A DNA stretch of 30,093 bases, taken from positions 1-30,093 of the IMG/VR virus record IMGVR_UViG_2802429218_000005. The stretch is one strand, 5' to 3'. Made by a program: the position numbers and the translations under genes. This DNA comes from a virus. Taxonomy: Duplodnaviria; Heunggongvirae; Uroviricota; Caudoviricetes. Under the pieces are notes generated by a model that saw nothing but the letters and a program-made list of their open reading frames with translations, did no database searches and was not told the DNA's origin. Positions 1 through 23,447 of this stretch are shown one piece after another. Positions within the stretch are counted from its first letter, which is position 1; each line of letters starts with the position of its first letter.

Positions 1-195
1 TCTGAGACAACATCTGGCAAGGCTGGGACGGAAGTCACTGTCGTTCTCAAAATCGGTGGAGCTGCATGACAAGGTCATCGGGCATTATCTGAACATAAAA
101 CACTATCAGTAAGTTGGAGTCATTACCCTATAGCTTTATTAACCAGTGTATACATAGGATATCGTGATTTATTAAATAAAGTATTTAATAATACA

Positions 196-864
196 GTGGT
201 TAAGTGGGGCGTAACTGGCTTTACATATTCAGTATGCTTATGGATCGCAAAGTTTAAGCTTGACATAGCTTATGGTATAGCCCCAGAAAATCTTAATTAC
301 TCAACATTAGCTTATGCTTTCATGCTCTCATTTCCAATAGGAGCAATGATTTGTGCAACTACAGTCTATATATACATATTTTTGCGAGATGTATCCCCAG
401 CAAAAATAGTAATATCCTCTATGATTTCAGTATATATTGGAAACTTGGCTCAACATCATATACAGGTGAACAATCTTCCTGAAAAAATAATATTAATAGG
501 ACTCATAATTATGGTCCCCTATAACATGGTCAATCTAGCCAGTTCATTAGTTATTAAAAGGAAATTTAATTTTAATCGTTTAGTATCAGGCTTATCCCTT
601 TTTGCTGTGTCAGTTGCTCTTTTTATTATTAGCATGACAGCAATGAAATATATTGAAAGATTTCAAGAAAAGTTTATTTTTCTTGATGCAAGAACATCTA
701 CGACATGTGGTAGCCCAGAAAGCAAATCTCTTTATATTGAAAAAAATGAAAATCAGTGTTATAAAATATCAGGAAATAAATTCTCGGAGTTAAGACTAAC
801 TCTTGTAGATAAAAACATCCCGAATATAAATAATAAGGGCACTTCAACTTATGAACAAAAATAA
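196..864 (+). CDS. Hypothetical multi-pass membrane protein (AT-rich; GTG start at 196 or first in-frame ATG at 322)
   Basis: Long ORF with several hydrophobic stretches typical of TM helices; stop overlaps start of next ORF (translational coupling). No family recognised. Confidence 0.45.
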   Translation: MVKWGVTGFTYSVCLWIAKFKLDIAYGIAPENLNYSTLAYAFMLSFPIGAMICATTVYIYIFLRDVSPAKIVISSMISVYIGNLAQHHIQVNNLPEKIILIGLIIMVPYNMVNLASSLVIKRKFNFNRLVSGLSLFAVSVALFIISMTAMKYIERFQEKFIFLDARTSTTCGSPESKSLYIEKNENQCYKISGNKFSELRLTLVDKNIPNINNKGTSTYEQK

Positions 865-1078
865 CCCTGCTAATTCATTTTCTATAGAAGCAAGGAAAGA
901 AGCTTTTCGGAGAGCTGAAGCCAGTCTTTTTTTATCAAGTAAAGATCCCAAAGGCTCCTCATTTTTTAATGAAATAAAAAATAAGGTAATCAATGGAGAG
1001 CTAACCTATGAAGAGGCAAAGAGAGAAGTGTTAAATCATCACATTGAACAATCTAAAAATAAAATTAAAAAAGGCTAA
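851..1078 (+). CDS. Small charged protein with weak VbhA/YhfG-like (Fic-antitoxin-like) resemblance
   Basis: ATG at 851 overlaps stop of upstream ORF; segments RRAEASLFLSS...VINGELTYEEAKREV resemble my recollection of VbhA helices, but the inhibitory S-x-x-x-E-G motif is S-x-x-x-S-S here. Confidence 0.4.
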   Translation: MNKNNPANSFSIEARKEAFRRAEASLFLSSKDPKGSSFFNEIKNKVINGELTYEEAKREVLNHHIEQSKNKIKKG

Positions 1079-1283
1079 CATCCAGTTAGCTGTATTAGCT
1101 CAGGCTCGAACTGACAGTTTGCGTAGGCAAAATGCAACCAAATCTGACAGTCTGCTTTGAGCGAGGAGCGGACGTAGGGAATTGGTCCTTTCCCCCAACG
1201 ATAACGTGTGTTAATCAGCCGAGAGTGGGTTATGAAACGCGGTGAATAGTTATGTTCCCAGTATCGCCATATTCCAGCCACTT

Positions 1284-2669
1284 TCAACGCATGCTTTTTG
1301 CGGCCTTATCTTGCTCCCAATGTGTGACACCTTCGACCCCACGCGTCGAGTCAGATGTAAGCATCAATGGCTGTCTAAGGAAGAGCCCCATCAAATCCGG
1401 GACACGGGCAAAGTCTTGAACAGTCTCAGCCCACTCATAGTTGTCCTCTAATGGGTAATAATTAACGGCATGCAGGAAAGCACCCAACACAGTTGTTTTA
1501 GAGGCATCGTAGGCCGAGATATGCTCCATGTTTTTATCCCTACGTAGTTCTTCAATATCTATGCCTTCGCAAGTCTCATACCAAATATGCACCACGCCAG
1601 CACGATCAGGGGGAATCTGCATGACTCCATCATTGAGCAAGCTCTTGAAATGCTTGGATCTGAGGCCAAGAGAAATCTCATGATCGCAGCGCCACTGAGC
1701 TCCAACGCACTTTGCAACATCCTCTACAAAAATGTTGAGAATATCGTTATTGGTGCCAGGACGAATAACTCTCTGAGCGATAGTCGAGATACTTCGTTTC
1801 TCATTGCTATCTAGCTCCCCAAATACCAGCAATTCATGCTGTGGGCTATTGGCTCTGACTGAAAATTTTCTGTAGTGACGTCTGAGACCTAATTTGTCGA
1901 TGGCTCGTATTCCCACACTGATTGAACCTTCATTAGCTTTTCCCGTCCCCCCTTTAATGGCTAGATTCACCGCTTTAATAACGTCTGCCGGAGTCACACT
2001 GGCGACCTGCTCATGGAAAATTATATCGACAATGTTCCATGGTGCGACTTTGAGCATATGTTGGCTCAATTGATGCCAGATGTTGGCCCAGGCTTGCTCT
2101 TCTGTCTTTGAGTACTTGGTTTGCTTATCCGACCTTTTGCACTCGACGTAGAACTCCAGATCACCTAACTTGACAAGCATATCCGGTGATTTTTTGGTCT
2201 TTCCATCGGGCCAAACAATGCTGCTTTCTGGGATGAAGGCAACCTCATAGCCGTTCTTTAGGTAGAACGATGCCGTCAGCAGCTCAAAAATTTGAGTTTC
2301 TGGTTTATTGTTATTTGCTAGCATTTTGTCCAGAACATCATCGACGTATGGGACTTTGCGAAGCTGGTCTGCAACAGCTCCGATGGCCATAGCATAGGGG
2401 TAGATACGTCTGCTGCTGTAAGTAGCATCACTATATGGAAAATCATGAGACAGATACGACGCCAGAATGTACCAGTCGATGTCATCTTCTGCTGGTATGA
2501 AGAGCTGGGGCTCTATCGGCAGATTGATGTTAAACTTAGCCTCCTTCTCTCTTATGCGCTTGAAATATGCAGCTTTGCGAGCAGCCCAGGCCTCAGTTCC
2601 AAGCCTATCCACAAGCAACTGATAAAAAGCTTTTGTTCTTAAACGCTCAACACTACTGACACTATCCAT
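1284..2669 (-). CDS. Hypothetical 461-aa protein with PD-(D/E)xK-type nuclease motif (PDMLVKLGDLEFYVECK)
   Basis: Long ORF, convergent with upstream pair; motif P162-D163...E172...E176-x-K178 encoded at 2136..2186 (verified by reverse-complement translation). Confidence 0.65.
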   Translation of the reverse strand: MDSVSSVERLRTKAFYQLLVDRLGTEAWAARKAAYFKRIREKEAKFNINLPIEPQLFIPAEDDIDWYILASYLSHDFPYSDATYSSRRIYPYAMAIGAVADQLRKVPYVDDVLDKMLANNNKPETQIFELLTASFYLKNGYEVAFIPESSIVWPDGKTKKSPDMLVKLGDLEFYVECKRSDKQTKYSKTEEQAWANIWHQLSQHMLKVAPWNIVDIIFHEQVASVTPADVIKAVNLAIKGGTGKANEGSISVGIRAIDKLGLRRHYRKFSVRANSPQHELLVFGELDSNEKRSISTIAQRVIRPGTNNDILNIFVEDVAKCVGAQWRCDHEISLGLRSKHFKSLLNDGVMQIPPDRAGVVHIWYETCEGIDIEELRRDKNMEHISAYDASKTTVLGAFLHAVNYYPLEDNYEWAETVQDFARVPDLMGLFLRQPLMLTSDSTRGVEGVTHWEQDKAAKSMR

Positions 2670-2929
2670 TGCGGTCTCTCTTGGTTGTTGTATAGAGTCT
2701 TTAGCGATATATGTGATTTCAACTTATTGGAGGTATTATCCTTCAGAAATCAAAGTTTGCTACCACAAAGAAATAGAAACTCTTTATTGCATCCTGTGTA
2801 AGTATCTATCCAAGCGGACCATTAGTTTTTTTAGATATCTGACGTCCCGCAACGTCCGCTTCTGGCACAGAGCGGACTGTCAGCTTAGGTTAAGCCCTAT
2901 GATCCTACCCACGTAATATGGACACAGGC

Positions 2930-3796
2930 CTAAGCGAGGTTCTTGTTTTCAAATTGTTCCGGACTGAGGCCGCCACACCAACTGTGCCGCCGCCACCGAT
3001 TGTAATCACATTCGATATAATTAAACACCGTTGCCCGCATTATTTCCCGGCTGATAAAGTGTTCTCCATGGATACATTCCACTTTCAGCGAATGAAAGAA
3101 GCTTTCCACGCAGGCATTATCGTAGCAGCAACCTTTTGCGCTCATACTTCCACGCAGATTATGCCGCTTCAGTTGCGCCTGATAATCTGCTGAACAGTAC
3201 TGGCCTCTACGGTCCGTGTGAACGATAACGTTCCGGGGCCTCTTACGCCGCCACAGCGCCATCTGCAGGGCATCGCAGGCCAGTTGCGCCGTCATGCGTG
3301 GCGACATTGACCAGCCAATAACGGCACGTGACCACAGGTCAATGACCACTGCCAGATACAGCCAGCCTTCATCTGTACGTAAGTACGTGATGTCTCCTGC
3401 CCACTTCTGGTTCGGGCCACTGGCGTAAAAATCCTGCTCCAACAGATTTTCTGACACAGGCAGGCCGTGTGCGCGGTAGCTGACCGGGCTGAACTTCCGG
3501 GAGGCCTTTGCCCTCAGTCCCTGACGGCGCAGGCTTGCCGCCACGGTTTTTACGTTAAAGGGGTAACCCTGAGCACGCAGTTCATCCGTCAGGCGTGGGG
3601 CACCGTAACGCTGTTTTGACCGGGTAAAAGCCGCGAGGACAACGCTGTCGCAGTGTTGGCGGAACTGCTGACGCGTGCTTATCCTTGTCCGCCGCTGACA
3701 CCACGTATACCAGCCGCTGCGGGCCACCCGGAGCACGCGGCACATTGCTTTGATGCTGAACTCAGCCTGATGTTTTTCAATAAAGACATACTTCAT
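2930..3796 (-). CDS. insF: IS3 transposase OrfB (DDE catalytic component; normally expressed as OrfAB by -1 frameshift)
   Basis: Translation [32 protein letters not shown]... with integrase-core motifs ([18 protein letters not shown]); frame is -1 relative to orfA. Confidence 0.9.
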
Positions 3797-4101
3797 TTCA
3801 GGCGCTTCGCGAAGTATGTCGCGGCCTTTTGGAGGATAGCCAGCTCTTCATCCCGTTCTGCCAGCTGGCGTTTGAGACGTGCAATCTCGGTAGACATCTC
3901 CAGTTCACGTTCAGAAGACGTCTGCTGATTTTGCTGTTTACTGCGCCAGTTGTAGAGCTGTGATTCATACAGGCTGAGTTCACGGGCTGCGGCAGTAACA
4001 CCGATGCGTTCAGCAAGCTTCAGGGCTTCACTGCGAAATTCAGGCGAATGCTGTTTACGGGGTTTTTTACTGGTTGATACTGTTTTTGTCATGTGAGTCA
4101 C
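3793..4101 (-). CDS. insE: IS3 transposase OrfA (HTH component)
   Basis: Translation [35 protein letters not shown]... matches IS3 OrfA as I recall it; ATGA overlap with orfB. Confidence 0.9.
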
Positions 4102-4213
4102 CTCTGACTGAGAGTTTACTCACTTAGCCGCGTGTCCACTATTGCTGGGTAAGATCACTATGCAGTAAAAGTGTAAGATCAAGTTTGAGCTAATACAAGT
4201 TAGCCTCTTTTCA

Positions 4214-4426
4214 CTAGTGAGCCATTTTATAGTCCCTTAATGCATTTTTAAGTAACTCAGTTTGCTCATAAGCATCATCATAATTATAAATTCCGGTAGC
4301 AGAATAATACTCTTCGATGCATAGAATATTTATCAATGGTTCACAAATCTCTTTAATAAACTCCTTGTTGTTATCGGCAAAAATAATTTTTATTCCTTCC
4401 AAAACAAAGCTATTATAATCAGCCAT
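4214..4426 (-). CDS. Hypothetical small acidic protein (70 aa) downstream of trbL
   Basis: Strong Shine-Dalgarno AAGGAGGTGGATA upstream of ATG; AT-rich; no family recognised. Confidence 0.5.
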   Translation of the reverse strand: MADYNSFVLEGIKIIFADNNKEFIKEICEPLINILCIEEYYSATGIYNYDDAYEQTELLKNALRDYKMAH

Positions 4427-4495
4427 TATCCACCTCCTTACAGGTGTTTAGTGGAAGCGTCAGTTAACGTTACCGCGCTAACTGACGCGTCTAAA

Positions 4496-5899
4496 TCAAG
4501 ATTTTTTACTGCCAGTAAAACTATCACCCTCAAACTCATCCTGTTCGTGGTTACTCTGACGATCGGCTGTGTGTTTACGTATTTGATTCGCTATTTCCCC
4601 ACCAACAGTCTGTTGTGTTCGGATAGAATTAGCACTTCCCTTCATCATCTGATACTCCGATGCTCCATTAGACAGCCCGCTCGCCATGTGAGAAGCCATG
4701 CGGCCAGCTCGTGAGAATGATGAAGCAAACCCCTGGCTTCCTCCGCTGACGCTACCTGTATTGCTCCCTGCAGAAGAACCACCGGAACCGCCTGATGGTT
4801 GTCCTCCAGAAGTATCTACGGAACCGGTATCTTCCCCGCCGCCAAATCCTCCACCTAAACCACCTTTATCACCAGAACCAGATTCTTCGGCCATCGCCGC
4901 TTGTGCAGATTCAAATGCTGCTTTTAGAGCGGAAGCACCACCACTGACTTGAGCTGTAGCGCTCATTGCCATTGCCCCAGCGCCACTGATTGCAGTAGTA
5001 GCAGCGCCAGTAATCATACCTGCTCCAAAACCACCGATCCCTTGTAAGGACGCTCCTCCAACAACGCCTGATAACAACAACGGTAATTTATTCGTCAATA
5101 CTAAAAGAATAATTGACGCCAGAAGTAAAACAATAAGACTATTAAGATCAGGAATATCATTTTTAATAATAGAAAAATACTGATCTAAAAATGATTGCCC
5201 AATCCCAATGATTAATGTCATTGTAAATAATTGAATACCAATCGATAATACTGTGCGTAAGTAATTTATTGCTATATCAGAAGTCCATTTCGAGCCACCA
5301 AACCCAAGAAAAATAACTCCTGCATAACACAACACCCATGCAGAAACTAACATTATTAGCATATTTATCGCGATAAGCGCCATTACTACTAATACTATTA
5401 TCGCGACGGTTATCATTATGGTCGAAATCATTGGAGACCAAATTGATGCCGCTGAACTGACCTTTGTTAATATCACAAAAGCTATATCAACTATGCTGGA
5501 GGGTGAAATACCAGTACTTGTTCCTAAAGCATTTGCTGCAAGTTGTCTCATTGAGTTAATTATAGATTGTGCTATGGCTGGGCCGTTGATTAAAAGATAA
5601 TAAAAAAAACCTATCACGGCAAAAAAACGAACTATTTCTGCAAGTGCATTGATTAAACCTTCCCCTTGCATCGCCAACATACCAAATGTCCAAACCATAC
5701 TGATTAATACCAGCCCCCAGAAGAGCCAATTCGCATAATCACCAATTACTAATGACCATGTGCTGGCTACTTGCTGAAACTTATCTAATAACGTATCAAG
5801 TAAACCGCTACTATCTAATTGACCAGCATAAGCATTTACAGAAAACAAAAAAATCATTCCCCAAAAAGTGAGTTTGCTTACTATTCTCATAATTACCAT
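4496..5899 (-). CDS. trbL: Conjugal transfer protein TrbL/VirB6-like (polytopic membrane protein with Gly/Ser-rich C-terminal tail)
   Basis: Multiple hydrophobic TM segments followed by a GGxGG/SGGS-rich low-complexity tail, typical of TrbL; sits in trbJ-K-L order. Confidence 0.75.
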   Translation of the reverse strand: MVIMRIVSKLTFWGMIFLFSVNAYAGQLDSSGLLDTLLDKFQQVASTWSLVIGDYANWLFWGLVLISMVWTFGMLAMQGEGLINALAEIVRFFAVIGFFYYLLINGPAIAQSIINSMRQLAANALGTSTGISPSSIVDIAFVILTKVSSAASIWSPMISTIMITVAIIVLVVMALIAINMLIMLVSAWVLCYAGVIFLGFGGSKWTSDIAINYLRTVLSIGIQLFTMTLIIGIGQSFLDQYFSIIKNDIPDLNSLIVLLLASIILLVLTNKLPLLLSGVVGGASLQGIGGFGAGMITGAATTAISGAGAMAMSATAQVSGGASALKAAFESAQAAMAEESGSGDKGGLGGGFGGGEDTGSVDTSGGQPSGGSGGSSAGSNTGSVSGGSQGFASSFSRAGRMASHMASGLSNGASEYQMMKGSANSIRTQQTVGGEIANQIRKHTADRQSNHEQDEFEGDSFTGSKKS

Positions 5900-6066
5900 T
5901 CTCGCTTAGGGCTAGGATTGTTATTACTGCGCAGGGCACATTTATCGTAGCTATGTTCGTTCAATTTATTCTCTGGCGTCGATAAACAATCGTCATCTTT
6001 TTTATCACAAGAGCATAGAATCAATGGAATGATTAGAATAAAAATGACCAAAAGTTTATCTTTCAT
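5893..6066 (-). CDS. Small lipoprotein-like ORF (57 aa), TrbK-like entry-exclusion candidate; not in supplied ORF track
   Basis: Hand translation MKDKLLVIFILIIPLILCSCDKKDDDCLSTPENKLNEHSYDKCALRSNNNPSPKREW; signal-peptide-like N-terminus with Cys; stop overlaps trbL start (GAATGGTAA); positioned between trbJ and trbL as trbK is in P-type systems. Confidence 0.4.
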   Translation of the reverse strand: MKDKLLVIFILIIPLILCSCDKKDDDCLSTPENKLNEHSYDKCALRSNNNPSPKREW

Positions 6067-6077
6067 TCAGCTATCCC

Positions 6078-6872
6078 TCACCAAATTCGCTTCGGGCTTG
6101 GTGTGTTCTCGCCAGCTAACGCTTTTTCATCAGCAACTATTTGTTGGGCCTCTTTATCGGTCTGAGCCAGCGCCAGTGTTGCTGCAGCGTTTTGTTGAGC
6201 TATCAGAAGCGAGCGGATTTGCAGCAGCTGGTTTGTTTGAGCACTGGCAAGCTGGTTAGCGGCCTGAATAGCTTCCATTTGCCCTTGCGCGCCGGTTGCC
6301 TGAGTTTGCAAATCTGTCAGGTTATCAGCATCGCTTTGCAGTGTTTCCTGCTGTTGATCGAGAGCCTTAAACACGGCGTCGTTCGCCTTTTTACGTGCCT
6401 CAGAGTTGTTCTGTTCAGCTTTACGCAGTGCGCTGATTTCATCCGCAGTACATTCAACATTACTGTTAAAGCACGGCGATGAGCGGTAGTAATTCACGTC
6501 CTGATAACGTTTCAGATATGAATCCAGACTACCGGCCTGATTTTTGTAGTAATTAAGGGTGTCCTGCGCCTGCAACAATTTGTTGATGGTCGAATTGGCC
6601 TGATCCCAGATATAGGCTGCAGGCGCGACTGTATTTTTGAGCATGTTTTCATACTGCTGCAGCTGCGTCTGGTACTGCTGGATCTGTTTAGCCACAGCCT
6701 GAACGTTATTGACTGCGCTGATTGTGGTCTGCACCACATTAGTACCATCGATGACAGGGATACCGGCTGTCGCCGGTAATGCCATGATGGATGCCAGGAA
6801 GGAAGCTGCTAAAGATTTTTTAGCTGCTAAAATCCCTCTCAGTGATGAAAATACTAGGAGCATTAACTTCAT
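6078..6872 (-). CDS. trbJ: Conjugal transfer protein TrbJ (VirB5-like)
   Basis: Signal-peptide-like N-terminus then AGIPVIDGTNVVQTTISAV and Q-rich coiled-coil region typical of TrbJ; adjacent to trbL. Confidence 0.75.
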   Translation of the reverse strand: MKLMLLVFSSLRGILAAKKSLAASFLASIMALPATAGIPVIDGTNVVQTTISAVNNVQAVAKQIQQYQTQLQQYENMLKNTVAPAAYIWDQANSTINKLLQAQDTLNYYKNQAGSLDSYLKRYQDVNYYRSSPCFNSNVECTADEISALRKAEQNNSEARKKANDAVFKALDQQQETLQSDADNLTDLQTQATGAQGQMEAIQAANQLASAQTNQLLQIRSLLIAQQNAAATLALAQTDKEAQQIVADEKALAGENTPSPKRIW

Positions 6873-6953
6873 TTGCCCACCTTAATTTTAACTGATTATT
6901 GATATTGAAAACTCGTACTTTTAACAGATACAGATATTTAGGAAGCCATAAAT

Positions 6954-7319
6954 TTATTTATCCAAGATTCTATCCATAATATTTCTTAGTTCTTGTCTGG
7001 TTGATTCTATTTTAGCAAGCAACGTTTTTATTAATGAGGGTGAAAAATCAACTGTGCGTGGATCGTTAGCTAACCACAGTTTAAGTAACCCACCAAGTCG
7101 ACCAAGATCAGCATTTACTCGGCTAAGCTCTACAACCTGATCAATATCTACAATAGACTCAACCTGATAACCCATTGCTACTTTACGAATGAAACTCGCT
7201 ACACTTAAGCCAGATGCTTCTGCATTTTCCTGGATTTGCGCTTTTTCATCTGGCAAACAATAAACTTTAATTGGTGTACTATTTTTTCTAGTCTGAGAAA
7301 CGGTCATATCATTCTCCAT
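6954..7319 (-). CDS. MobC-family relaxosome accessory (mobilisation) protein, ribbon-helix-helix type
   Basis: Motifs AEASGLSVASFIRKVAMG and RLGGLLKLWL resemble MobC family; size about 120 aa; upstream of trb genes. Confidence 0.55.
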   Translation of the reverse strand: MENDMTVSQTRKNSTPIKVYCLPDEKAQIQENAEASGLSVASFIRKVAMGYQVESIVDIDQVVELSRVNADLGRLGGLLKLWLANDPRTVDFSPSLIKTLLAKIESTRQELRNIMDRILDK

Positions 7320-7387
7320 ACAGGCGGTAGCCGATCAGCCTCGCAGAGCAGGACTCCATTGAGCAGCCCAGCTGCGAATAAGGGAAG

Positions 7388-7425
7388 GTAAAGTAGAAGC
7401 GCCGTTTACGGTGGGCCTACTTTAC
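7388..7425. repeat. 9-bp inverted repeat gtaaagtag / ctactttac with 20-nt spacer, about 70 bp upstream of MobC-like gene
   Basis: Read directly from sequence; arms are perfect reverse complements. Confidence 0.5.
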
Positions 7426-7590
7426 ATGTCCTGCCCCACTGTTGCCGTTGTATATCTGTGTACCCATTGTGTATTTCGGTGTAAGCAGTGTGTTTTTTTG
7501 ATGTATTTCTGCAGGTTTATTCATATATTAAGTGTGTAATATATGTGTTTTCTGAAAGGAAACTGATTTAAATACCAAAATTTAAGATAA

Positions 7591-7872
7591 TTATTCTTTC
7601 GGTTTTATCTTCGGTGGCCTACCTCGTTTCTTTTGAACCATTTCAGCACGCTGCATTAAATCGCGGTTTTCCAGCTCTGATTCAACAGAATTATCTATCC
7701 ACTCTTTAACATCTTCTCGACGCCACAAAAGTCGCTTATTGCCAGGAAGACGGCATCTGGGAGGGAGGCATTTAGGGTTCCGAGTTGCATCACTACGGAT
7801 ACTTTTCACTGTTTTCTTCAAAGCAAAAGCTAACTCTTCGACGGTTATAAGTTCAGGCATAACTGGTTTCAT
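7591..7872 (-). CDS. AlpA/excisionase-family HTH DNA-binding protein
   Basis: LITVEELAFALKKTVKSIR ... RLPGNKRLLWRREDVKEWI resembles HTH_17/AlpA/Xis-type regulators of integrative elements; basic C-terminal tail. Confidence 0.55.
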   Translation of the reverse strand: MKPVMPELITVEELAFALKKTVKSIRSDATRNPKCLPPRCRLPGNKRLLWRREDVKEWIDNSVESELENRDLMQRAEMVQKKRGRPPKIKPKE

Positions 7873-8180
7873 AGCAGAACCTATCTCTCAGAAAATATTT
7901 TCAGGATTTTAGCCGCTATAATTTTAGCCGCTAAATTTTGCAAACCAACGTTAAGAATTGAGAATACCCAAAAATTATCACCTGAAATATTTCTGTCAAC
8001 ACCTCAACAGCTAGAGGAAATAAAAAACCACTGGACCAGCTCTATTTTTTGTTCGTTTTTTGCACAACAATAAGGTTTTAATAAGTCTTTTAGTATTTTG
8101 GTTATATATATGGTTAAAGATCTGGTTAGAGAACAATAAAACAATAGCTAATCCGTTGTTTTGTAATTAATTTAAAAAAA

Positions 8181-8246
8181 TGCCCTACCTCATATGTCAA
8201 TAATTTGCCCCTCATATGTCATGAAATGGCCCCTCATATGTCATAA
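8181..8246. repeat. Three tandem iteron-like direct repeats, 22-bp period, core cctcatatgtca (8188, 8210, 8232)
   Basis: Direct reading: tgccctacctcatatgtcaata / atttgcccctcatatgtcatga / aatggcccctcatatgtcataa. Confidence 0.7.
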
Positions 8247-8331
8247 ACATAAAAAAACAAGCACAGGTTATAAACATAGTTACTAATAGAATTTGTGGAT
8301 AAATGCACAGGATATACGCAAAAAATATAAA

Positions 8332-8347
8332 TTGTTTAGCTAAACAA
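8332..8347. promoter_or_regulatory. Perfect 16-bp palindrome TTGTTTAGCTAAACAA (copy 1), candidate operator
   Basis: Exact self-complementary sequence; identical second copy at 8505..8520. Confidence 0.6.
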
Positions 8348-8403
8348 AATAGCAACAATAAAAATGAAACAAAATGTAAATAATGGATTTTGGCTATAGT
8401 TAC

Positions 8404-8429
8404 CCACAAAGGTTAGCTAACCTTTGTGG
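8404..8429. promoter_or_regulatory. Perfect 26-bp palindrome CCACAAAGGTTAGCTAACCTTTGTGG sharing core TTAGCTAA with the 16-bp palindromes
   Basis: Exact self-complementary sequence; followed by a 16-bp palindrome tctcataattatgaga at 8432..8447. Confidence 0.6.
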
Positions 8430-8504
8430 TATCTCATAATTATGAGAGCACCATCATTAACAACGGATATATCGAAACGAGTAACAGAAAATGCTCCTCG
8501 ATGG

Positions 8505-8520
8505 CTTGTTTAGCTAAACA
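8505..8520. promoter_or_regulatory. Perfect 16-bp palindrome TTGTTTAGCTAAACAA (copy 2), candidate operator
   Basis: Identical to copy at 8332..8347. Confidence 0.6.
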
Positions 8521-8813
8521 AATTTAAATTTTACTAAGTATGTATGAAGGGCAAAACCTGATCCCAAACAGGAAGGAATGGTCAATGGATAGGTGTTTTT
8601 GCTGCATAGCAACGCTACTCGCAATATAACCAGAAAAATAGGGATACTAAACCCGACAGGTGAGGCCGGGCTTGAGTATTTGTAGCTCTGGGCGGAGGGG
8701 ACATCCCACATTAGACGAAAAAATTCTATAATGAATTGTTGAGGTAAAGCAATTAGGTATTATCTAAAACAAGTTATCGCTGATGTAAAAGTTGTTATCT
8801 AACAAGTAGAAAG

Positions 8814-9080
8814 GTGAGAATTGTGAGGACAAAAAAGGCTGAACCAAGCACTGTAGGTGAAATACTTAATGAAGAATTCTTGAAACCCATGAATATGTCT
8901 TTATGTAAATTAGCGGAATTGACAGGAATGTCTTATAGTAGAATAAGAAAAATTATAATACATAATGATCCAATATCCATAAAAGAAGCATTATTACTTG
9001 CTGAAGTATTTCACACGGATCCGGATTTTTGGATAAACTTACAAAATGTTCATCATTACTGGCATCAAAAATGTAACTGA
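8814..9080 (+). CDS. XRE-family HTH protein, HigA-like antitoxin/antidote (solitary); alternative GTG start at 8823
   Basis: STVGEILNEEFLKPMNMSLCKLAELTGMSYSRIRKII...EALLLAEVFHTDPDFWINLQNVHHYW matches HigA/VapI-type antidote pattern; SD aaggtgag upstream of GTG 8823. Confidence 0.7.
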   Translation: MRIVRTKKAEPSTVGEILNEEFLKPMNMSLCKLAELTGMSYSRIRKIIIHNDPISIKEALLLAEVFHTDPDFWINLQNVHHYWHQKCN

Positions 9081-9134
9081 TATCAAAATCTGCCGTTAAT
9101 AATGTGTATTATCAACGGCATGTATTTAACAAGA

Positions 9135-10880
9135 TTAATTATACTCAATGCGGAATAATTTATTCTCTTGAGACAATTTCACAATGAAGTTTTTCTCATC
9201 GCTCAGTTCTTTTGGAAGTTTATCCTTCAATATAGATGCAACATACTGAATTTGAGATTTGTAACGTTCAACAAGATTAGCTATTCTGACCAGTTGATTG
9301 CCATGCATAAGTTCTTTTTTGTCATTTAACAAAAAATGGAAACAAGGAATGTTTTCTTCATCTGCAAATAAAATATATGCAATATCAAAACAAACAATTT
9401 CTCCTTGTTTTTTTCCTGAACTAAAATTGGTATTAAACGAACTGAATTTGTATATTTTTTTTCCTGTTTTTGATGCTGTAACAATATCATATTTCAAAGC
9501 ATATTGTTCACCGTATAACTCTTGAGACACAGTTGAAAAATATTTATTGAACTTATTTACTTGAGATTGAACTTCTAACTCAAAATCATCAGAAAATAAA
9601 TTATTGTTAATAGCATCAACTTGAGCGTTTAACTCTTCGATATTCTTTTCAGTTTTCTCAATTTGGTTAATAATGGCTTCGAACTCACCTTTTTTTCGGT
9701 GTTTTTCATTCAATTCTAAGACTAGTCCTTCAAGTTCATCAAACGAACCGCTTTTATTTATATTTTCAACTAATTCTTTTTCTTTGGCAAGAAGTATAGT
9801 TAAATCTTCTTGAGTTTTACTAATCTCACTAGTTATTACAGGTAATTCTTTTGATATGAATTTAACTTTTTCTTCAACCATTTGGTTGTGGAAGGAAAGT
9901 AATGATTCAAATTTTACCTGAATATTCTTTATATTATTACTGGCTTCAGTATATAGATCTTTCAATTGATTAGTGTCAATTTCCATCTTGCCACTTTCAA
10001 TATCTTTTACCGCCTCAACTATGAGTTCTTTCCGTAATTTAAGCTTACTTAATTTTGAACCTATAGTGCTCAATTGATACTTAATATCATCCAAAGCATT
10101 GAGATCATTTTCAAAGTTAGGGTTGATATAGAAAGTAGACTTTTTCAGATCTAAATCATTAATTTCCGAAATCAATAATGCTAGTGATGTCTCATATGCA
10201 GTGCGAGTTTGTTTAGACTCCAACCTATTCTTGAAGGTTGTTTCCATTCGGATGCTAGCTAACAAATTTTGTTTAAGAGCTCCTTTTCCAAAATCACATC
10301 CAAGAAGAAATAAATGAAGGGTCTCATATTCATCATCACGAGTAAATGAGCTTAGTGTTCTCAGCGTATGGGTGACACTGAGTTCTTTATATCTTATATT
10401 ATTAGATATTATTTGGGAAAAGGTAGGCTTATTACCATAATGGCCAGAAACTAATACGTCTGTTAACGTTTCTTCAAACTCTTCGATTGTTTTTTGTAGT
10501 CCATTAATTCTTCTGATACATTTTTTACGAGAGAGAAAATTTCGCTCAATGACGATGGTCTTAGCTAGCGGATCATCTAAATCCTCAACAAGTGTTAGGG
10601 TTATTAAAACCTCTGTTTCAATCAAGAAGTTTTTAACAAGTGTATATTCGCCCTTTTTAGTTTCTGGGTCAGTATAAATGCCTTTAGCATCTGCGCCTAA
10701 ACAAAAATCGACTAACATTAATACTGTTGTTTTACCAACATTATTGCCAGTGGTTTTGGTTGACTCGGTTGATGCTTCATCAACTGGCGTTTCATCAACG
10801 ATCAAATTCAAACCAGCATGAAACTTTATTAAGCGTATAACCCCATCTTTATTGGCTATCTGGAGAGATTTTATGAACAT
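9135..10880 (-). CDS. SMC/Rad50-like ABC ATPase with central coiled coil (LmuB-like / ABC-3C ATPase candidate)
   Basis: N-terminal FHAGLNLIVDE then Walker A GNNVGKTT (res 45-52); long E/K/L-rich central region; C-terminal Walker B-like ILFADEE; AT-rich; last gene of coupled 3-gene operon. Confidence 0.7.
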   Translation of the reverse strand: MFIKSLQIANKDGVIRLIKFHAGLNLIVDETPVDEASTESTKTTGNNVGKTTVLMLVDFCLGADAKGIYTDPETKKGEYTLVKNFLIETEVLITLTLVEDLDDPLAKTIVIERNFLSRKKCIRRINGLQKTIEEFEETLTDVLVSGHYGNKPTFSQIISNNIRYKELSVTHTLRTLSSFTRDDEYETLHLFLLGCDFGKGALKQNLLASIRMETTFKNRLESKQTRTAYETSLALLISEINDLDLKKSTFYINPNFENDLNALDDIKYQLSTIGSKLSKLKLRKELIVEAVKDIESGKMEIDTNQLKDLYTEASNNIKNIQVKFESLLSFHNQMVEEKVKFISKELPVITSEISKTQEDLTILLAKEKELVENINKSGSFDELEGLVLELNEKHRKKGEFEAIINQIEKTEKNIEELNAQVDAINNNLFSDDFELEVQSQVNKFNKYFSTVSQELYGEQYALKYDIVTASKTGKKIYKFSSFNTNFSSGKKQGEIVCFDIAYILFADEENIPCFHFLLNDKKELMHGNQLVRIANLVERYKSQIQYVASILKDKLPKELSDEKNFIVKLSQENKLFRIEYN

Positions 10881-11100
10881 ATTCCAATTTCCCCTTTGGA
10901 TTTAATTCAACTATTCCTGCTAGGTATAACCAGTCAAGAGATAAAACAAAAATTGATATAGACATTTCAATTTTTTTCTTTGTTTCGTAAAAAAGATCTA
11001 TCAATTCAATTTCATCGAAACGTTTCAGCGTATCTATAATAAACCCACCGTTATAATATAAGCTATCTTTAGGATGAATGTCCTTTGGTAACAACATCAT
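10849..11100 (-). CDS. Small overlapping ORF (83 aa), candidate middle component of three-gene system
   Basis: Overlaps upstream gene end and downstream gene start by 32 nt each (translational coupling); no motif recognised. Confidence 0.4.
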   Translation of the reverse strand: MMLLPKDIHPKDSLYYNGGFIIDTLKRFDEIELIDLFYETKKKIEMSISIFVLSLDWLYLAGIVELNPKGKLEYVHKISPDSQ

Positions 11101-12049
11101 TCACTCCGTTAGGGTCCCTAAAAATTTTACAGCGTATGAACGCGTCCACTGCAAGTATACTAACACAAAGCTCCAGTTCCTCTAATGGTATTTGTGTAAA
11201 ATTTGCACTTTTTCTGACCATTTCAACAGAGCTGTCAATTATTTTAAAAAATAGCTCATCTCCAGTGTATTGTGTACTCAATTTTACGAAGATAGTTCTA
11301 AAGGAAGACAAAACTGAAAGGCTTGAGTTTTTACCCATCTGGTTGAACTCTGAATAAATGCGGGATACTTTTCCATGATGGATTTTGTAATCTTCAATAA
11401 TATATTCAGCTGCATTCAAATTATTAAATGTAATCTTGTCAGTTACATCGAATGGTTGCGGGAAGTCAGTAGTTTCAACATTAGAAAAATCCTCCTTAGC
11501 TAATATATTTATAACAGCAGCAATATTTGTTTCGATTAAAACATTATCAGATTCCTCTTGTAACTCATTTTTTAGAAAACCGTGTATTTCTTTCTGTTTT
11601 GTTATGTCAAGATGTGAAATAACATTAAGTATCGATTTTACATCATGAATATCTTGCTGCGGTATAAAAACCAAAGCATGAGGATTAGTGTAAGTTTTAT
11701 TTCTTAAATCACTAGCATCTTTTGCAATTGATATAAATTTAAACTGATGGCCTTTATATAATCTTAAGTCTTTGTTCAAGGCTGAATCAATTTTTGTTTT
11801 AGTTGCAGTTGATGAAACCTGTAATACTATCTTCCCATTCTCATCGATAAGATCGATACCCTCAAAATTATGCTTCTCTTGATTAGTATTCTTTAGGGAA
11901 TACCCAAATAATAAATTAAAGAAGTGAACATAAAAATCTTCACAATGAAGATTATAGTTAAGAATATTTAACTTCCCTCTTAATTCAACGCTATAGCATA
12001 GCAACGTAAGCCTTTTCTCACATAAATCAAAATAAATAGATCTGTTCAC
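11069..12049 (-). CDS. Hypothetical 326-aa protein, candidate effector (LmuA-position) of three-gene defence-like operon
   Basis: First gene of the operon; AT-rich; no confidently recognisable catalytic motif by eye. Confidence 0.6.
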   Translation of the reverse strand: MNRSIYFDLCEKRLTLLCYSVELRGKLNILNYNLHCEDFYVHFFNLLFGYSLKNTNQEKHNFEGIDLIDENGKIVLQVSSTATKTKIDSALNKDLRLYKGHQFKFISIAKDASDLRNKTYTNPHALVFIPQQDIHDVKSILNVISHLDITKQKEIHGFLKNELQEESDNVLIETNIAAVINILAKEDFSNVETTDFPQPFDVTDKITFNNLNAAEYIIEDYKIHHGKVSRIYSEFNQMGKNSSLSVLSSFRTIFVKLSTQYTGDELFFKIIDSSVEMVRKSANFTQIPLEELELCVSILAVDAFIRCKIFRDPNGVNDVVTKGHSS

Positions 12050-12302
12050 ACATATTATCCTTAAACTATAAACTAATCCGATATTATGAACTTAGGTAAA
12101 GTAGAAAAACTCTTCACAGATCTTACAGCATCTACGAGCTGGTTCAAGGTATGTTGAGATGGATTGAGATGTGTAGCGTATCTTCTCATTCCAAAAAGAA
12201 ACCTGCCACAATTTTGCCACACTCACAACGCGCAAAAATGCACATTTGTGTTAAGAAAAGCAAAACAACGCAACAGTAACCAGATGATTTTATTAGAAAA
12301 AA

Positions 12303-12348
12303 TGGTGCCGATAATAGGAGTCGAACCTACGACCTTCGCATTACGAAT
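12303..12348 (-). tRNA. tRNA-Thr(CGU) 3' fragment, 46 nt from anticodon loop to CCA (thrW-like att-core remnant, not a complete gene)
   Basis: Reverse complement reads ATTCGTAATGCGAAGGTCGTAGGTTCGACTCCTATTATCGGCACCA; sequence 5' of the anticodon loop does not continue as tRNA. Confidence 0.7.
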
Positions 12349-12571
12349 CATAAGAATCCGCTTCTAATTCAAAGTATTACCCCATCAACACTGCGCTCAC
12401 ACGTCCCACCACATCAAAACATGTAAAGCCTTGCAAGCCATTGTGAGGCCTTATGTGTCTCAGTTTTGTCCCACTACGACCTGCACAGAAAATAAGAAAA
12501 TAGCGGTGATATCAAACAGTACAGAAGTCTTTTTTCTTTCAAATGGAGAAACTGATTAACCCGTTTAATTG

Positions 12572-12796
12572 TACTCCTCATGGGCAATCAGCAGTCCTCA
12601 GAGTAATGGAATGGCAGAAAGGTTCGTGAAAACGATGAAGGAAGACTACATCGCGTTCATGCCGAAACCGAATGTAAGAACGGCATTGCATAATCTTGCA
12701 GTGGCGATCGAACATTACAATGAAAACCATCCGCACAGTGCGTTGGGTTATCGCTCTCCGCGAGAATATCGACGTCAGCGGGTAACGTTAACTTAA
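12572..12796 (+). pseudogene. DDE transposase/integrase-core C-terminal fragment (IS3/IS481-like), 5'-truncated
   Basis: [18 protein letters not shown] ... [14 protein letters not shown] are C-terminal rve-domain motifs; in-frame stop immediately upstream, no N-terminal part present. Confidence 0.55.
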
Positions 12797-12837
12797 GATA
12801 CACCCCCTGTCTGGAAATAAGGGGGCAAGAACAATGA

Positions 12838-13590
12838 TCAGATTCCCTGGTGAGTAAGAATTTTACTTTCTGAACTCCTCTGAGAGTATTGACTTGGAGA
12901 AACACCAAAATAACGTCTAAATACATAAGTAAAGTATGAGACACTGACATAACCACAGACCTTAGCTACTTTACTAATAGGATAACAACGAGTGCTGAGT
13001 AAATATTCAGCCATTTGCATCCTCTCATCAAGTATGATCTTACTGAATGATACCCCCTCTTCTTTCAATTTCCTCTTTAGTAAACTTTCGCTGAGATATA
13101 ATCTTGATGATATATCCTTAAGACGCCATGGTGCAGATAAATCCGTATGAATAATCGTTTTAACTTTAGCCCCTGTGCTTTTCAAACATCCAAACAGAAA
13201 TACTCCAAATTGTTTTTCAGAAGAAAATGCAGAGAGACATGTAAAAGCAATAGACTCATCAAAAGTTTCTATGTATTCAGCACAGTGATTAGCCCAACTA
13301 ATTAATCCTTTAATTAAACTGAAGTCAGCAAAGTTTATTTTTAAATAAGATGGATATTCCCTACAATCAGAAATATCCCTTAAGTTATTAGCTTTCAAAT
13401 AGCGACTAATAAACTCAGCGCCAAAATCCGCCACTATCACTCTTTCAGGATATGTCAGGAAAAAATCTCTATAGCTAGAGTCGACAAGTACAGATAAACC
13501 TCTATCCAGAAACACACTCTCTTTTCCGAAATAAACATCAAAGGACTCCAAAATCAATATAACTGAACATGTAGTTGCCATATCATCCAC
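12838..13590 (-). CDS. AraC-family transcriptional regulator (AppY/EnvY-like subfamily)
   Basis: C-terminal HTH region WRLKDISSRLYLSESLLKRKLKEEGVSFSKIILDERMQMAEYLL...CGYVSVSYFTYVFRRYFGVSPSQY resembles AppY/EnvY as recalled; AT-rich. Confidence 0.8.
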   Translation of the reverse strand: MDDMATTCSVILILESFDVYFGKESVFLDRGLSVLVDSSYRDFFLTYPERVIVADFGAEFISRYLKANNLRDISDCREYPSYLKINFADFSLIKGLISWANHCAEYIETFDESIAFTCLSAFSSEKQFGVFLFGCLKSTGAKVKTIIHTDLSAPWRLKDISSRLYLSESLLKRKLKEEGVSFSKIILDERMQMAEYLLSTRCYPISKVAKVCGYVSVSYFTYVFRRYFGVSPSQYSQRSSESKILTHQGI

Positions 13591-14164
13591 CCAATTTAAC
13601 TGAAACCAGGATGAAGTATATGCATATAAAGTTCACTTTGCCAAACTTCAGTATAAAAAACCACATAAAAAATAGGGTGTGATAAAAAATACCGTAAAAA
13701 TAAAGCAAAGGATTATAAATTCCGTTACAGTTACAAATGATACTTAAGAAACAATTCCTTAGAAAACCTTATTTACAGCCAATAAGTAAGACACTTATAT
13801 GATATCAAGTTTTCATAAAACATAACTAGGCTAAATAGCTGCGCCTAATACCGCTACACTTTTGCCATCCCATGTTTGCCTCCGGGTATTGACCCCTTCT
13901 CTACGCAACTTCAGTTCCCACCACCAACTTTGCGGCAGCTTTGTAGGATCAATGTCTAAAAGAATAATGGTGACCGATAAGAAAACGACTGAATAACTGC
14001 AGATTTTCGCTCGAAACCTTCCTGTCAGATCCATAGCGAATCAAGTGCTGAATGTCACAGTATCGAACAGAAAACAGTGACGATCTAACCCTTCAAGAAT
14101 ATTCTACGATTGTTCTGTTTAGGAAAAGCAAGGCGGGAAGTCGGGAGATAAGTCATTGATAAAG

Positions 14165-14230
14165 TGGCGGAGAGAGGGGGATTTGACCCCCCGGTAGAGT
14201 TGCCCCTACTCCGGTTTTCGAGACCGGTCC
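14165..14230 (-). tRNA. tRNA-Ser(CGA) 3' fragment, about 66 nt, with T-arm substitution (GTTC to GGTC); serU-like att-core remnant
   Basis: Reverse complement reads GGACCGGTCTCGAAAACCGGAGTAGGGGCAACTCTACCGGGGGGTCAAATCCCCCTCTCTCCGCCA; 5' part of tRNA absent. Confidence 0.7.
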
Positions 14231-14309
14231 AATCATCAAACGAAACATAAAATTAATTCACATTATGAGGAAAAGTATCTTTTTTGTACTTGTAAATTCA
14301 AAGGCTTAG

Positions 14310-15179
<870 letters not shown>

Positions 15180-15239
15180 GTCTTTAAGTGATAAGCATAA
15201 ACCGCAGCACGATCTTCTTGCATACGACGTGCTACGGTT

Positions 15240-15794
15240 TCATTTATCTCCGACCGGAAACTTCTTATACAGTGTCGATATACCAACATCATAGATGATC
15301 GCCACCTTCTGGCGAGGAACGCCTGATGCAATTAATCGTCCGGCCTGCTCCCATTGTTCTGGTGTAAGTTTGGGGCGACGTCCACCAATTCGTCCCTGTG
15401 CGCGAGCTGCTTCTAGTCCAGCTTTTGTTCGTTCAACAATCAGTTCACGCTCCATTTCAGCCAGGGCACCCATCACATGAAAGAAAAAGCGCCCCATTGG
15501 GGTACTGGTATCAATTGAATCCGTCAGACTACGAAAGTTGATGCCTCGTTCGCGCAACTCCTCCACCAGCACGACAAGATGCCGCATACTGCGCCCCAGT
15601 CGGTCCAGTTTCCAGACCACCAGCGTGTCACCTGCCGATAATGTCCTGAGCAGCTTTTTCAGTCCTGGTCTGTCGGACTTTGTACCGCTTATCTTGTCTT
15701 CAAAAATTAGCTCACACCCTGCACAGTTCAGCGCATTGCGTTGTAGATCGGTATTCTGGTCATTTGTTGATACACGTACATAGCCAATAAGCAT
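15240..15794 (-). CDS. pin: Serine recombinase DNA invertase, Pin/Gin/Hin/Cin family
   Basis: MLIGYVRVSTNDQNTDLQRNAL...VVWKLDRLGRSMRHL...GRIGGRRPKLT nearly identical to my recollection of e14 Pin; SD AGGGGGA 5 nt upstream of ATG at 15794; track N-terminal extension is spurious. Confidence 0.9.
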   Translation of the reverse strand: MLIGYVRVSTNDQNTDLQRNALNCAGCELIFEDKISGTKSDRPGLKKLLRTLSAGDTLVVWKLDRLGRSMRHLVVLVEELRERGINFRSLTDSIDTSTPMGRFFFHVMGALAEMERELIVERTKAGLEAARAQGRIGGRRPKLTPEQWEQAGRLIASGVPRQKVAIIYDVGISTLYKKFPVGDK

Positions 15795-15847
15795 GTTAAA
15801 TCCCCCTGGTAAAAGCAGGAATGATGCCATTTGCTTGTTATTTCTTC

Positions 15848-16204
15848 ATTTTCATAAACGTTGGTTTGGGAGAAGCCAGATATGTCATTCAGCGAGGAGC
15901 TAATGCCAATGGTGCGTGGATACGCTGGTCAGATGGTGCAATAGAAGTCTTTGGAACGGGGGGTTCTAATGATAATGGACTGGCTAAAGTCGTTTATCCA
16001 ATTGCGCTACCTAAGCTTTCACGTTTTATCAGCATAGCGGAAAGAATAGGAACGGATTATGGGGGCACATCTAATAACGTTCACGTTTCAATGATCGTGG
16101 ATGACCAGGTCACTAATACCGGTTTTTATGTCCGCTGCCAGATGTACGACGGAACACCATCAACAAGTGCTTTTTCCTGGAGGGTTTATTGTGCGCCTGT
16201 TTAA
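15848..16204 (+). CDS. Alternate tail-fibre C-terminal variable segment (promoterless in present orientation)
   Basis: Frame runs through crossover site encoding NVGLGE, matching NLGLGE encoded at the other site within the expressed fibre gene. Confidence 0.5.
   Translation: MFINVGLGEARYVIQRGANANGAWIRWSDGAIEVFGTGGSNDNGLAKVVYPIALPKLSRFISIAERIGTDYGGTSNNVHVSMIVDDQVTNTGFYVRCQMYDGTPSTSAFSWRVYCAPV
15849..15874. repeat. Invertase crossover site (gix/pix-like), copy proximal to pin
   Basis: ttttcataaacgttggtttgggagaa; reverse complement TTCTCCCAAACCAACG... shares 14 bp with site at 17460 and resembles gix/hix consensus. Confidence 0.7.
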
Positions 16205-17762: not shown

Positions 17763-17765
17763 GGA

Positions 17766-22763: not shown

Positions 22764-22777
22764 ATAAACTCCGGATA

Positions 22778-22834: not shown

Positions 22835-22853
22835 AACCTAATATTTTTAATTA

Positions 22854-23366: not shown

Positions 23367-23447
23367 TTGTAAGGAATGATTATATTAACTACTTAAAGCT
23401 GAAAACCCAAATTATGCCAGACAAAAACACATTAATCATTTTGTACA

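Follow-up and report, generated by a model that had tools for sequence, protein, structure and literature searches.

Intact IncP-type transfer genes and plasmid-like control sites in a probable helper-dependent mobilizable island at thrW

The window analyzed here, by which we mean the whole 30,093-nucleotide (nt) stretch of the IMG/VR virus record IMGVR_UViG_2802429218_000005 (Caudoviricetes), contains at positions 4214-7872 six open reading frames (ORFs), all of them intact and all on the minus strand, whose products include subunits of an IncP-type type IV secretion system (T4SS), the relaxosome protein TraJ and an AlpA-like protein. A preliminary description had taken this region for the decayed remnant of a conjugative element. 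The combination of traJ-trbJ-trbK-trbL with alpA is instead the normal conserved core of a family of integrative mobilizable elements (IMEs) and not what a deletion left behind. The window is chromosomal DNA of Escherichia coli. Its positions 4100-8000 are 100% identical to several complete E. coli genomes, where they lie beside the tRNA-Thr gene thrW and proA, and positions 1-12348 are 100% identical in NCTC9038 (locus L026). We compared the region with the diverged E. coli islands L003 and L007, the Enterobacter quasiroggenkampii copy L008, the Enterobacter vonholyi island L010, the Pseudomonas relative L023 and three guaA-type PIME1 islands (L006, L012 and L015), PIME being the name of a wider family, the Pseudomonadota Integrative Mobilizable Elements (bioRxiv 10.64898/2026.01.12.698999). 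The reference plasmid was pCCRI24236-3 (NZ_CP081317.1), an enterobacterial IncP-like conjugative plasmid of about 50 kb.

Two of the six genes encode readily recognized T4SS subunits. The trbL gene (4496..5899, minus strand) specifies the VirB6-type inner-membrane subunit (TIGR02783, 9.5e-80; PF04610, 4e-30), with 60% amino acid (aa) identity to TrbL of pCCRI24236-3 (69.5% at the nt level), while trbJ (6078..6872, minus) specifies the VirB5-type subunit (NF010452, 1.2e-113), with 90% aa identity to the plasmid protein and 94% nt identity over 700 bp. Between them lies a trbK-like gene for a 57-aa entry-exclusion lipoprotein (5893..6066, minus), which no Pfam or NCBIfam hidden Markov model (HMM) matches and which is just 26% identical to the annotated TrbK of the plasmid. 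The two lipoproteins have in common their position, their length, a lipobox Cys20 followed by Asp, the pair Cys27/Cys43 and a C-terminal SPxxxW, and in IncP and related plasmids entry exclusion is encoded by the small lipoprotein gene that separates trbJ from trbL (PMC8923210). The segment of trbJ, small lipoprotein and trbL that the preliminary description had recognized is thus real. The last gene after trbL, a 70-aa ORF (4214..4426, minus), closes the set in thrW-type islands and is found in L003, L007, L008, L009 and L010; Pfam and NCBIfam scans gave no match for it, leaving its family unassigned, and its product is 70% identical to that of L007. We also observed that the C-termini of TrbJ (...PSPKRIW, 6078-6100) and TrbK (...PSPKREW, 5893-5915) are alike, with plasmid TrbK ending in SPEKKW; a motif common to the VirB5-type subunit and the exclusion lipoprotein might reflect competition for one partner.

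Upstream of trbJ, the gene at 6954..7319 (minus) had been described as MobC-like, a label that we reject, as Pfam returns only the NikA-like ribbon-helix-helix (PF21983, 6e-24) and RHH_1 families and NCBIfam identifies TraJ (NF010451 equivalog, 4.3e-48, 162.7 bits against a cut-off of 134). The 121-aa product is therefore the ribbon-helix-helix relaxosome protein that recognizes the origin of transfer (oriT), and it is 62-63% identical to TraJ of pCCRI24236-3. Directly upstream of traJ, positions 7331..7436 (plus strand) form an IncP-type oriT that aligns column by column with the traK-traJ intergenic oriT of the plasmid. It comprises an imperfect inverted repeat (arms 7381-7405 and 7408-7432) and the nick region ACATGTCCTG|CCC at 7424-7436 (plus), with the predicted nick between 7433 and 7434; the plasmid motif, ACATATCCTG|CCC, is one base apart. 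The RP4 oriT also aligns to 7331-7436, as a lead rather than a database result.

The sixth gene (7591..7872, minus) encodes a 93-aa protein with an AlpA/excisionase-type winged-helix fold and an AT-hook-like C-terminal tail. At the sequence level the assignment is weak: Pfam HTH_17 matches at E=0.09, and only a few of 68 homologues carry PF12728. The AlphaFold2 model (pLDDT 74), in contrast, matches RdfS, the GIsul2 excisionase Xis (8c3t) and the Xis-like BldC in Foldseek with probabilities of 0.96-0.99 and TM scores of 0.6-0.7 normalized to the target. No sequence similarity to the AlpA of PIME1 is detectable, hhalign giving a weak result (E=0.007, probability 5.6%); in a profile search of the family against PDB sequences, ETV6 alone matched and was judged spurious. 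Going by the model, the protein is AlpA-like at the level of the fold only, so that the AlpA-like regulator named earlier holds for structure and remains weak in sequence. A putative alpA promoter, read by eye on the minus strand, consists of a -35 TTGACA (7999-7994) and a -10 TAATTT (7977-7972) preceded by TG. Its -35 and the pair of KorB operators described below are kept in five diverged islands; a generic promoter and terminator scan of 4100-9100 was uninformative, returning fewer sites than shuffled sequences and none at the conserved TTGACA. Divergent from alpA lies an orphan gene of the HigA family, whose product has an XRE-type helix-turn-helix (8814..9080, plus; TIGR02607, 2.3e-19). 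This gene is present in every island locus, and its product is 51% identical to the HigA encoded next to the vegetative origin (oriV) of pCCRI24236-3.

The 940-bp spacer between alpA and higA contains an oriV-like module together with operators for the IncP repressors KorA and KorB. The module (8071..8302, minus) has the order known from IncP origins, namely DnaA box, iterons and AT-rich unwinding element (PMC4980987): a DnaA box TTATCCACA at 8294-8302, also present in the oriV of pCCRI24236-3, three TrfA-type iterons at 22-bp spacing (8229-8243, 8207-8221 and the degenerate 8185-8199), and an AT-rich block with AACC-ended repeats (8071-8131). The iteron TGACATATGAGGGGC is the same as those directly downstream of trfA in the plasmid, which has nine copies at the same 22-bp spacing, and the start of the AT-rich block matches the plasmid AT-rich region exactly over 18-21 nt. 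The iterons of an IncP-type oriV are 17 bp long, clustered at a spacing of about 22 bp, and its unwinding element contains 13-mers. In PLSDB, 59 plasmid records match the spacer, all from enterobacterial genera and 58 of them typed as conjugative; among the matches listed, the iterons are the only matching part. A single TrfA-type iteron also stands beside higA in guaA-type PIME1 islands that have their own RepA (L006 15490-15504, L012 2299-2313, L015 11934-11948). This lone iteron suggests an IncP-like plasmid as the source of the iteron-higA segment, taken up in one piece from its oriV-higBA region.

The KorA operator (OA) GTTTAGCTAAAC and the KorB operator (OB) TTTAGCSGCTAAA are those of plasmid RK2 (PMC11790492). 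The spacer contains two exact OA copies (8334-8345 and 8508-8519; 2 matches against 0 in 100 shuffles), both of which are kept in L003, L007 and L010, with one copy mutated in L008. Just downstream of the putative alpA promoter lies a tandem pair of OB sites on the minus strand (7923-7935, exact, and 7908-7920, with one mismatch), and a near-consensus OB, TTTAGCTGCTAAA, also one mismatch away, lies inside the 5' end of trbJ (6819-6831), giving 3 matches with at most one mismatch in the window against 0.11 expected. These sites lie in island-specific DNA. The plasmid itself has 4 OA and 14 OB sites, its OA overlapping the -10 of its own promoters, and guaA-type PIME1 likewise has both OA and OB sites. 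Between the two OA sites are a perfect 26-bp palindrome (8404-8429), whose core GGTTAGCTAACC (8411-8422) resembles the KorA operator without being identical to it, and a conserved 13-mer TTCGATATATCCG (8464-8476). All five thrW islands keep the 13-mer and four of them the palindrome core (L007 is one base off), whereas neither element occurs in the IncP plasmid or in PIME1; the island HigA or AlpA may bind here. An assignment of GGTTAGCTAACC to TrbA or another IncP operator was rejected, the sequence being absent from the plasmid and no operator in the literature examined matching it. That literature yielded no paper tying GIsul2 to KorA, KorB or TrfA-type sites, and the text of the PIME preprint mentions none of KorA, KorB, TrfA and thrW (10.64898/2026.01.12.698999). 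The ORF coordinates in the preliminary description were correct, while its inventory had not accounted for the oriT at 7331-7436, the plasmid-type cis sites at 7900-8520 or the 70-aa ORF.

HMM scans and tblastn agree with the earlier statement that no relaxase, coupling protein, VirB4-type ATPase or integrase is encoded in the window. When every ORF of at least 60 aa from an IncP plasmid was searched by tblastn against window positions 1-12400, only homologues of trbJ, trbL, traJ, higA and vbhA were recovered, and Pfam and NCBIfam scans of all ORFs of the window island, L003, L007 and L008 were negative for Rep, RepA and TrfA domains. Beyond the window, near-identical genomes have no relaxase, coupling protein, VirB4 or integrase within about 20 kb, the island's own integrase apart; in NCTC9038 that integrase and the distal attachment (att) site lie 17.6 kb further left. 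A relaxase, a VirD4-type coupling protein, a VirB4 ATPase and a full mating-pair-formation (MPF) set are also absent from the complete att-bounded copies. Neither the window, nor its flanks, nor these complete copies thus hold what an integrative and conjugative element (ICE) of the MPF-T type or an integrated IncP plasmid needs. The missing trb genes and relaxase do not lie just outside the window, and the reading of the region as a remnant fails for other reasons, given below.

The right end of the island is marked by a 47-bp att repeat (12302..12348), a copy of the 3' part of the tRNA-Thr gene thrW that matches the thrW 3' end exactly; in the window, ARAGORN found no intact tRNA. The stretch from the 70-aa ORF to this repeat is collinear with the intact Enterobacter island. 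On either side of the complete islands L003, L007 and L008 stands a 49-50 bp direct repeat of the thrW 3' end, and complete islands encode a tyrosine integrase (PF00589) at their tRNA-distal end. Complete copies measure 18 kb in E. coli PSS-13 and 14 kb in E. coli ES2, and the one in Enterobacter quasiroggenkampii 10.9 kb. E. coli, Enterobacter, Shigella, Dickeya, Erwinia, Phytobacter and Pseudomonas all have this minimal set, intact and in the same order, together with att repeats and integrases. Among 5426 complete E. coli genomes, 104 contain the core (counted at >=80%) and 94 a matching integrase.

The core genes are under purifying selection. In comparisons of the window with L003, L007 and the PIME1 island L006, the ratio of nonsynonymous to synonymous substitution (dN/dS) was 0.03-0.3 for the six genes (trbJ, trbK, trbL, traJ, alpA and the 70-aa ORF), with dS reaching values above 1; it was 0.03-0.11 for alpA, 0.13 for trbL and 0.28 for the 70-aa ORF against L007. 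Over 8 kb, the window and the copy in Enterobacter quasiroggenkampii share 95.4% identity, compared with 78% for the adjoining proA, and the island therefore moved between genera long after these had diverged. Furthermore, the plasmid-like parts map to at least four non-adjacent plasmid regions (oriT-traJ, trbJKL, oriV-higA and vbhA) and are joined in the island by short conserved spacers, a layout that simple deletion of an integrated plasmid or ICE therefore fails to explain.

A T4SS reduced to TrbJ, TrbK and TrbL has been reported before. GIsul2 and the "IncP islands" are IMEs with only these three proteins of the IncP T4SS, and by analogy with SGI1 they have been proposed to use IncP plasmids and reshape the mating apparatus (PMC5704250). 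The window island has the same three genes, and the GIsul2 excisionase (8c3t) is among the fold matches of its AlpA-like protein. GIsul2 differs in having RepA/RepC, no TraJ and a guaA site (PMC5704250), whereas the window island, at its thrW site, has traJ and lacks repA and repC; the IncP islands known from Burkholderia and Brucella differ in their own TraI relaxase, TraK and RepA and again in the guaA site (PMC5704250). SGI1 is also a relaxase-less IME with three replacement T4SS subunits that is tied to the regulatory circuit of its helper (PMC5704250), and it hijacks the helper's parABS partition system (PMC10954446). SGI1 and its IncC helpers differ in their unrelated MPF-F proteins TraN, TraG and TraH, in control by AcaCD and in an SGI1 replicase of its own (Rep_3), while the T4SS here is MPF-T and the functions borrowed would include the replication initiator itself.

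The closest published relatives are the PIMEs, for one member of which IncP-dependent excision, replication and transfer have been demonstrated and for which defence cargo is documented (10.64898/2026.01.12.698999). The trbL-to-oriT block of the window is 85% nt identical to that of the PIME1 EcPF16, which sits at guaA with int, a luxR-type gene, alpA and repA. As in PIMEs, trbJ and trbL occur in the window without a complete T4SS (NCBIfam equivalogs; tblastn against 1-12400), and the shared features extend to an IncP-like oriT with inverted repeat and identical ACATGTCCTG|CCC nick motif, an orphan higA, large defence cargo, KorB operators and, in complete copies, a tyrosine integrase, to which an AlpA-type gene can be added at the level of the fold; core genes oriented opposite to the integrase are also seen in PIME4. 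In contrast to PIME1, the thrW lineage has no LuxR homologue, the gene divergent from alpA being higA, and its integrase is 32% identical to the guaA type and directs insertion at thrW, not guaA. It also lacks repA, PIME1 RepA giving no tblastn match, although the repA replicase is one of the five markers that define a PIME (10.64898/2026.01.12.698999); where PIME relatives have a replicase, the thrW lineage has the TrfA-type iteron array. The thrW lineage is replicase-less, thrW-specific and previously undescribed, and it lies outside the published PIME definition. Since the PIME survey demanded the replicase marker, it would have missed this lineage. In the Pseudomonas relative L023, an alpA homologue (49%) directly precedes a TrfA-family gene (PF07042), after which come traJ-trbJ-trbL, cargo and an integrase (51%); this arrangement likely represents the ancestral state.

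The pattern of similarity to pCCRI24236-3 is uneven. The iteron, the DnaA box, the start of the AT-rich block and the OA and OB sequences are identical in plasmid and island, and at the protein level VbhA (39%) joins TrbJ, TraJ, TrbL and HigA among the similar products, while the plasmid differs in its full trb and tra sets, in having trfA, korA, korB and incC, and in its TrbK and nick motif. The contrast between trbJ, at 94% nt identity, and trbL (69.5%) or TrbK points to recent recombination with the pCCRI24236-3 clade. Such recombination would imply co-residence, making this enterobacterial IncP-like clade the best candidate for a helper.

Taken together, these findings make it probable that the region is the transfer and regulation core of an IME of the GIsul2, IncP-island and PIME kind, integrated at the thrW 3' end and helper-dependent in the way proposed for those elements. 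By analogy with the tested PIME1 and with SGI1, a co-resident IncP-like plasmid would supply the relaxase TraI, the coupling protein and the T4SS, and the island TraJ would steer the helper relaxosome to the island oriT. Island TrbJ and TrbL would join the helper mating apparatus, with the diverged TrbK setting a separate entry-exclusion specificity as in the SGI1-like model (PMC5704250). The excised circle would be replicated by helper TrfA, and the alpA/higA switch, perhaps along with partition, would be wired to helper KorA and KorB. IncP plasmids transfer with 5'-to-3' polarity. A nick at 7433|7434 on the plus strand would thus send alpA, the oriV-like region, higA and the cargo into the recipient first, and in a copy that does not excise the same nick would drive Hfr-like transfer toward thrW-proA. 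A more far-reaching version, which we offer tentatively as a possibility well short of likely, is that thrW islands are pure "cis-site parasites" that have discarded their own trfA and kept only oriV, oriT and the KorA/KorB operators. The helper would then provide TrfA, a partition/silencing clamp made up of KorB with IncC and KorA, the relaxase and the T4SS, and the alpA-higA switch, through its OB and OA sites, would act as a sensor of the helper. The orphan HigA might in turn be titrated by a RelE/HigB-type toxin of the plasmid.

The description of the region as non-functional debris beside defence genes, left when an ICE or integrated IncP plasmid was stripped by deletion, has several observations in its favor. 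No relaxase, coupling protein, VirB4 or pilin is found in the window or in about 20 kb around it in identical genomes; the window copy is interrupted by the insertion sequences (ISs) IS1 and IS3, TB06052 retains only an integrase fragment, some E. coli genomes have decayed copies with half-cores only (H103-H106), and iterons without a trfA look left over and are degenerate in L010. Against these stand the recurrence of the intact set in constant order across genera with att repeats and integrases, purifying selection at saturating dS, the recent transfer between genera, the derivation of the plasmid-like pieces from at least four separate regions joined by conserved spacers, and the excision, replication and transfer of relatives in experiments (10.64898/2026.01.12.698999). 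For the element, which proves to have complete att-bounded relatives and the core of a known family, we consider decay very improbable; decay does apply in part to this particular copy, with its IS1-split left-end gene and its IS3. The alternative in the same preliminary description, a mobilizable island with defence cargo, is borne out by the traJ/trbJKL/alpA core of an IME family and by the cargo described below. A further explanation for the iterons would be that the island replicates by itself through an unrecognized replicase, such as one of the variable left-arm proteins, with iterons and operators as inherited passengers. The 465-aa ORF of L008, the 296-aa ORF of L003 and the 70-aa ORF are indeed without a family, but the left-arm ORFs differ from island to island (296 aa in L003, small split ORFs in L007 at 66% identity, an unrelated 465 aa in L008, 22% in L009), the L008 ORF, hydrophobic at its start, lacks a Rep domain, the iterons belong to the TrfA type and are identical to those of the helper-type plasmid, and the Pseudomonas relative has its TrfA-family gene at the corresponding position, all of which makes an own replicase highly unlikely.

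An immobile, domesticated module directed against plasmids, in which TrbK (with TrbJ and TrbL), the iterons and the operators exclude, destabilize or silence IncP-like plasmids, would fit the defence-gene setting. Arrays of iterons are a classical cause of plasmid incompatibility. TrbK-type lipoproteins in recipients keep IncP and IncN plasmids from entering (PMC8923210), and an active PIME1 lowered the copy number of pB10 (10.64898/2026.01.12.698999). Among 342 matching records in 341 complete E. coli genomes, at most one genome holds both the island and an IncP-like trbJKL plasmid, yet only a few such genomes (about 4 by a rough estimate under independence) would be expected, so that the deficit is not significant and the number too small to call exclusion. 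The islands also keep an intact oriT, TraJ and mostly an integrase and att sites, none of which exclusion alone needs, they have spread recently between genera, and the divergence of TrbK from that of the plasmid makes cross-exclusion uncertain. We therefore judge an immobile anti-plasmid module to be improbable as the whole account, while an anti-plasmid role through exclusion or through titration of TrfA or KorB is live as an alternative or added function.

This added role is one of a number of points that weigh against a helper-dependent mobilizable island. We infer excision, transfer and TrfA-dependent replication of thrW islands alike. The only relaxase-less E. coli PIME put to the test, the PIME1 EcRHB23-C07, excised and was not mobilized by pB10 or pKJK5 (10.64898/2026.01.12.698999). 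Every island lineage examined has G for A at position -6 of the nick motif, and PLSDB holds no plasmid traJ-oriT more than 75% identical to that of the island; at this best value of 75%, no parent or helper was identified through traJ-oriT. The oriV-like module is also reduced, since the unwinding element of RK2 requires all four 13-mers (PMC4980987) and the island has 3-4 looser AACC repeats, one DnaA box and no GC-rich segment. The iteron array is short, at 3-4 copies against 9 in the plasmid (two exact and one degenerate in the window), and in L010 the GGGGC end has been lost from all three iterons, so that the array may be the decaying vestige of a trfA replicon that was lost. The conservation that speaks for the helper link, with 81% invariance in the IncP-type sites plus a few further blocks and 48% in the remaining alignable spacer across five islands, includes some footprint blocks picked after the alignment had been seen. 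KorA and KorB are repressors, and operators at alpA alone do not explain helper-induced excision. Finally, the integrase is absent from the window, and this copy may therefore no longer be able to excise.

The copy in the window is damaged on its left by IS1 and IS3, with the integrase outside the window or lost, while its oriT and its trb and tra genes are intact. An IS3-family element (orfA/orfB, 2930..4101, minus; rve and HTH_Tnp_1 domains, annotated as IS3 in identical genomes) interrupts the island between the cargo and the 70-aa ORF; it is absent from L003, L007 and L008 and is not part of the element proper. The left arm (130..2669, no strand assigned) comprises a membrane-protein gene truncated by IS1 (196-864), a VbhA-family antitoxin gene (851-1078) and a 461-aa ORF, the tblastn match to the 296-aa protein of L003 beginning at window position 130. 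The start of the window lies within that IS1, whose junction is also found in L002 and L026. In NCTC9038 (L026 2910-20167) the left-arm membrane-protein gene is interrupted by a composite transposon about 17 kb long, of which this IS1 forms one end and which is loaded with a 16-kb polysaccharide export and glycosyltransferase locus (GumC, galE and others). A plain deletion of the integrase in this lineage was rejected on this evidence, the composite transposon having moved the integrase 17.6 kb off. The island has thereby become a vehicle for a capsule or exopolysaccharide locus.

Two positions in the island hold cargo. Hotspot 1 (9135..12049, minus) carries a three-gene ABC-three-component (ABC-3C) defence-like system, as annotated by RefSeq on identical DNA, with PADLOC matches to PDC-M68B/LmuB-like proteins and an Aga restriction endonuclease; ABC-3C cargo recurs in the Enterobacter copy L008, and hotspot 1 differs in other islands. 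In the second hotspot, the 461-aa ORF (1284-2669, minus) has a weak AHJR-like restriction-endonuclease match (E=0.0065, below cut-off) and no PADLOC match, and is a candidate uncharacterized defence gene. Beside the integrase end, a VbhA-family antitoxin-like gene is kept together with a gene that precedes it (window 851-1078 with 196-864, L003 9771-10875, L008 11714-13304). The preceding gene is always variable, matches no family, differs widely in sequence among islands and is not a Fic toxin; its version in L008 has a hydrophobic N-terminus. The IncP-like plasmid also carries a VbhA-family gene, located after korB. In the remainder of the window (12350-30093), a prophage or tail cluster of the contractile-tail type adjoins the island in tandem at the thrW att copy. 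It encodes, among others, an AraC-type regulator (12838-13590) and a GIY-YIG protein (14355-15179), and a gene for a Hin/Gin-type invertase (15240-15830) lies beside genes for tail fibres and their assembly. Further products are a Mu Gp48-like baseplate protein, a tape-measure protein (23448-25280) and a sheath protein (26047-27543).

About 2% of complete E. coli genomes carry the thrW lineage, and its KorA/KorB operators and TrfA-type iterons bear on how the island senses and exploits a helper. If the tentative reading of these islands as cis-site parasites is true, this would be the first IME shown to borrow the replication initiator of its helper, and it would name the inducer that the PIME authors call still unknown (10.64898/2026.01.12.698999). 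The islands ferry varied anti-phage cargo between genera, and the identity of the helper therefore matters for predicting the spread of defence genes, and, for relatives such as GIsul2, that of resistance genes. Should the iterons and operators interfere with the plasmid as well, the island could affect which cells host IncP-like resistance plasmids.

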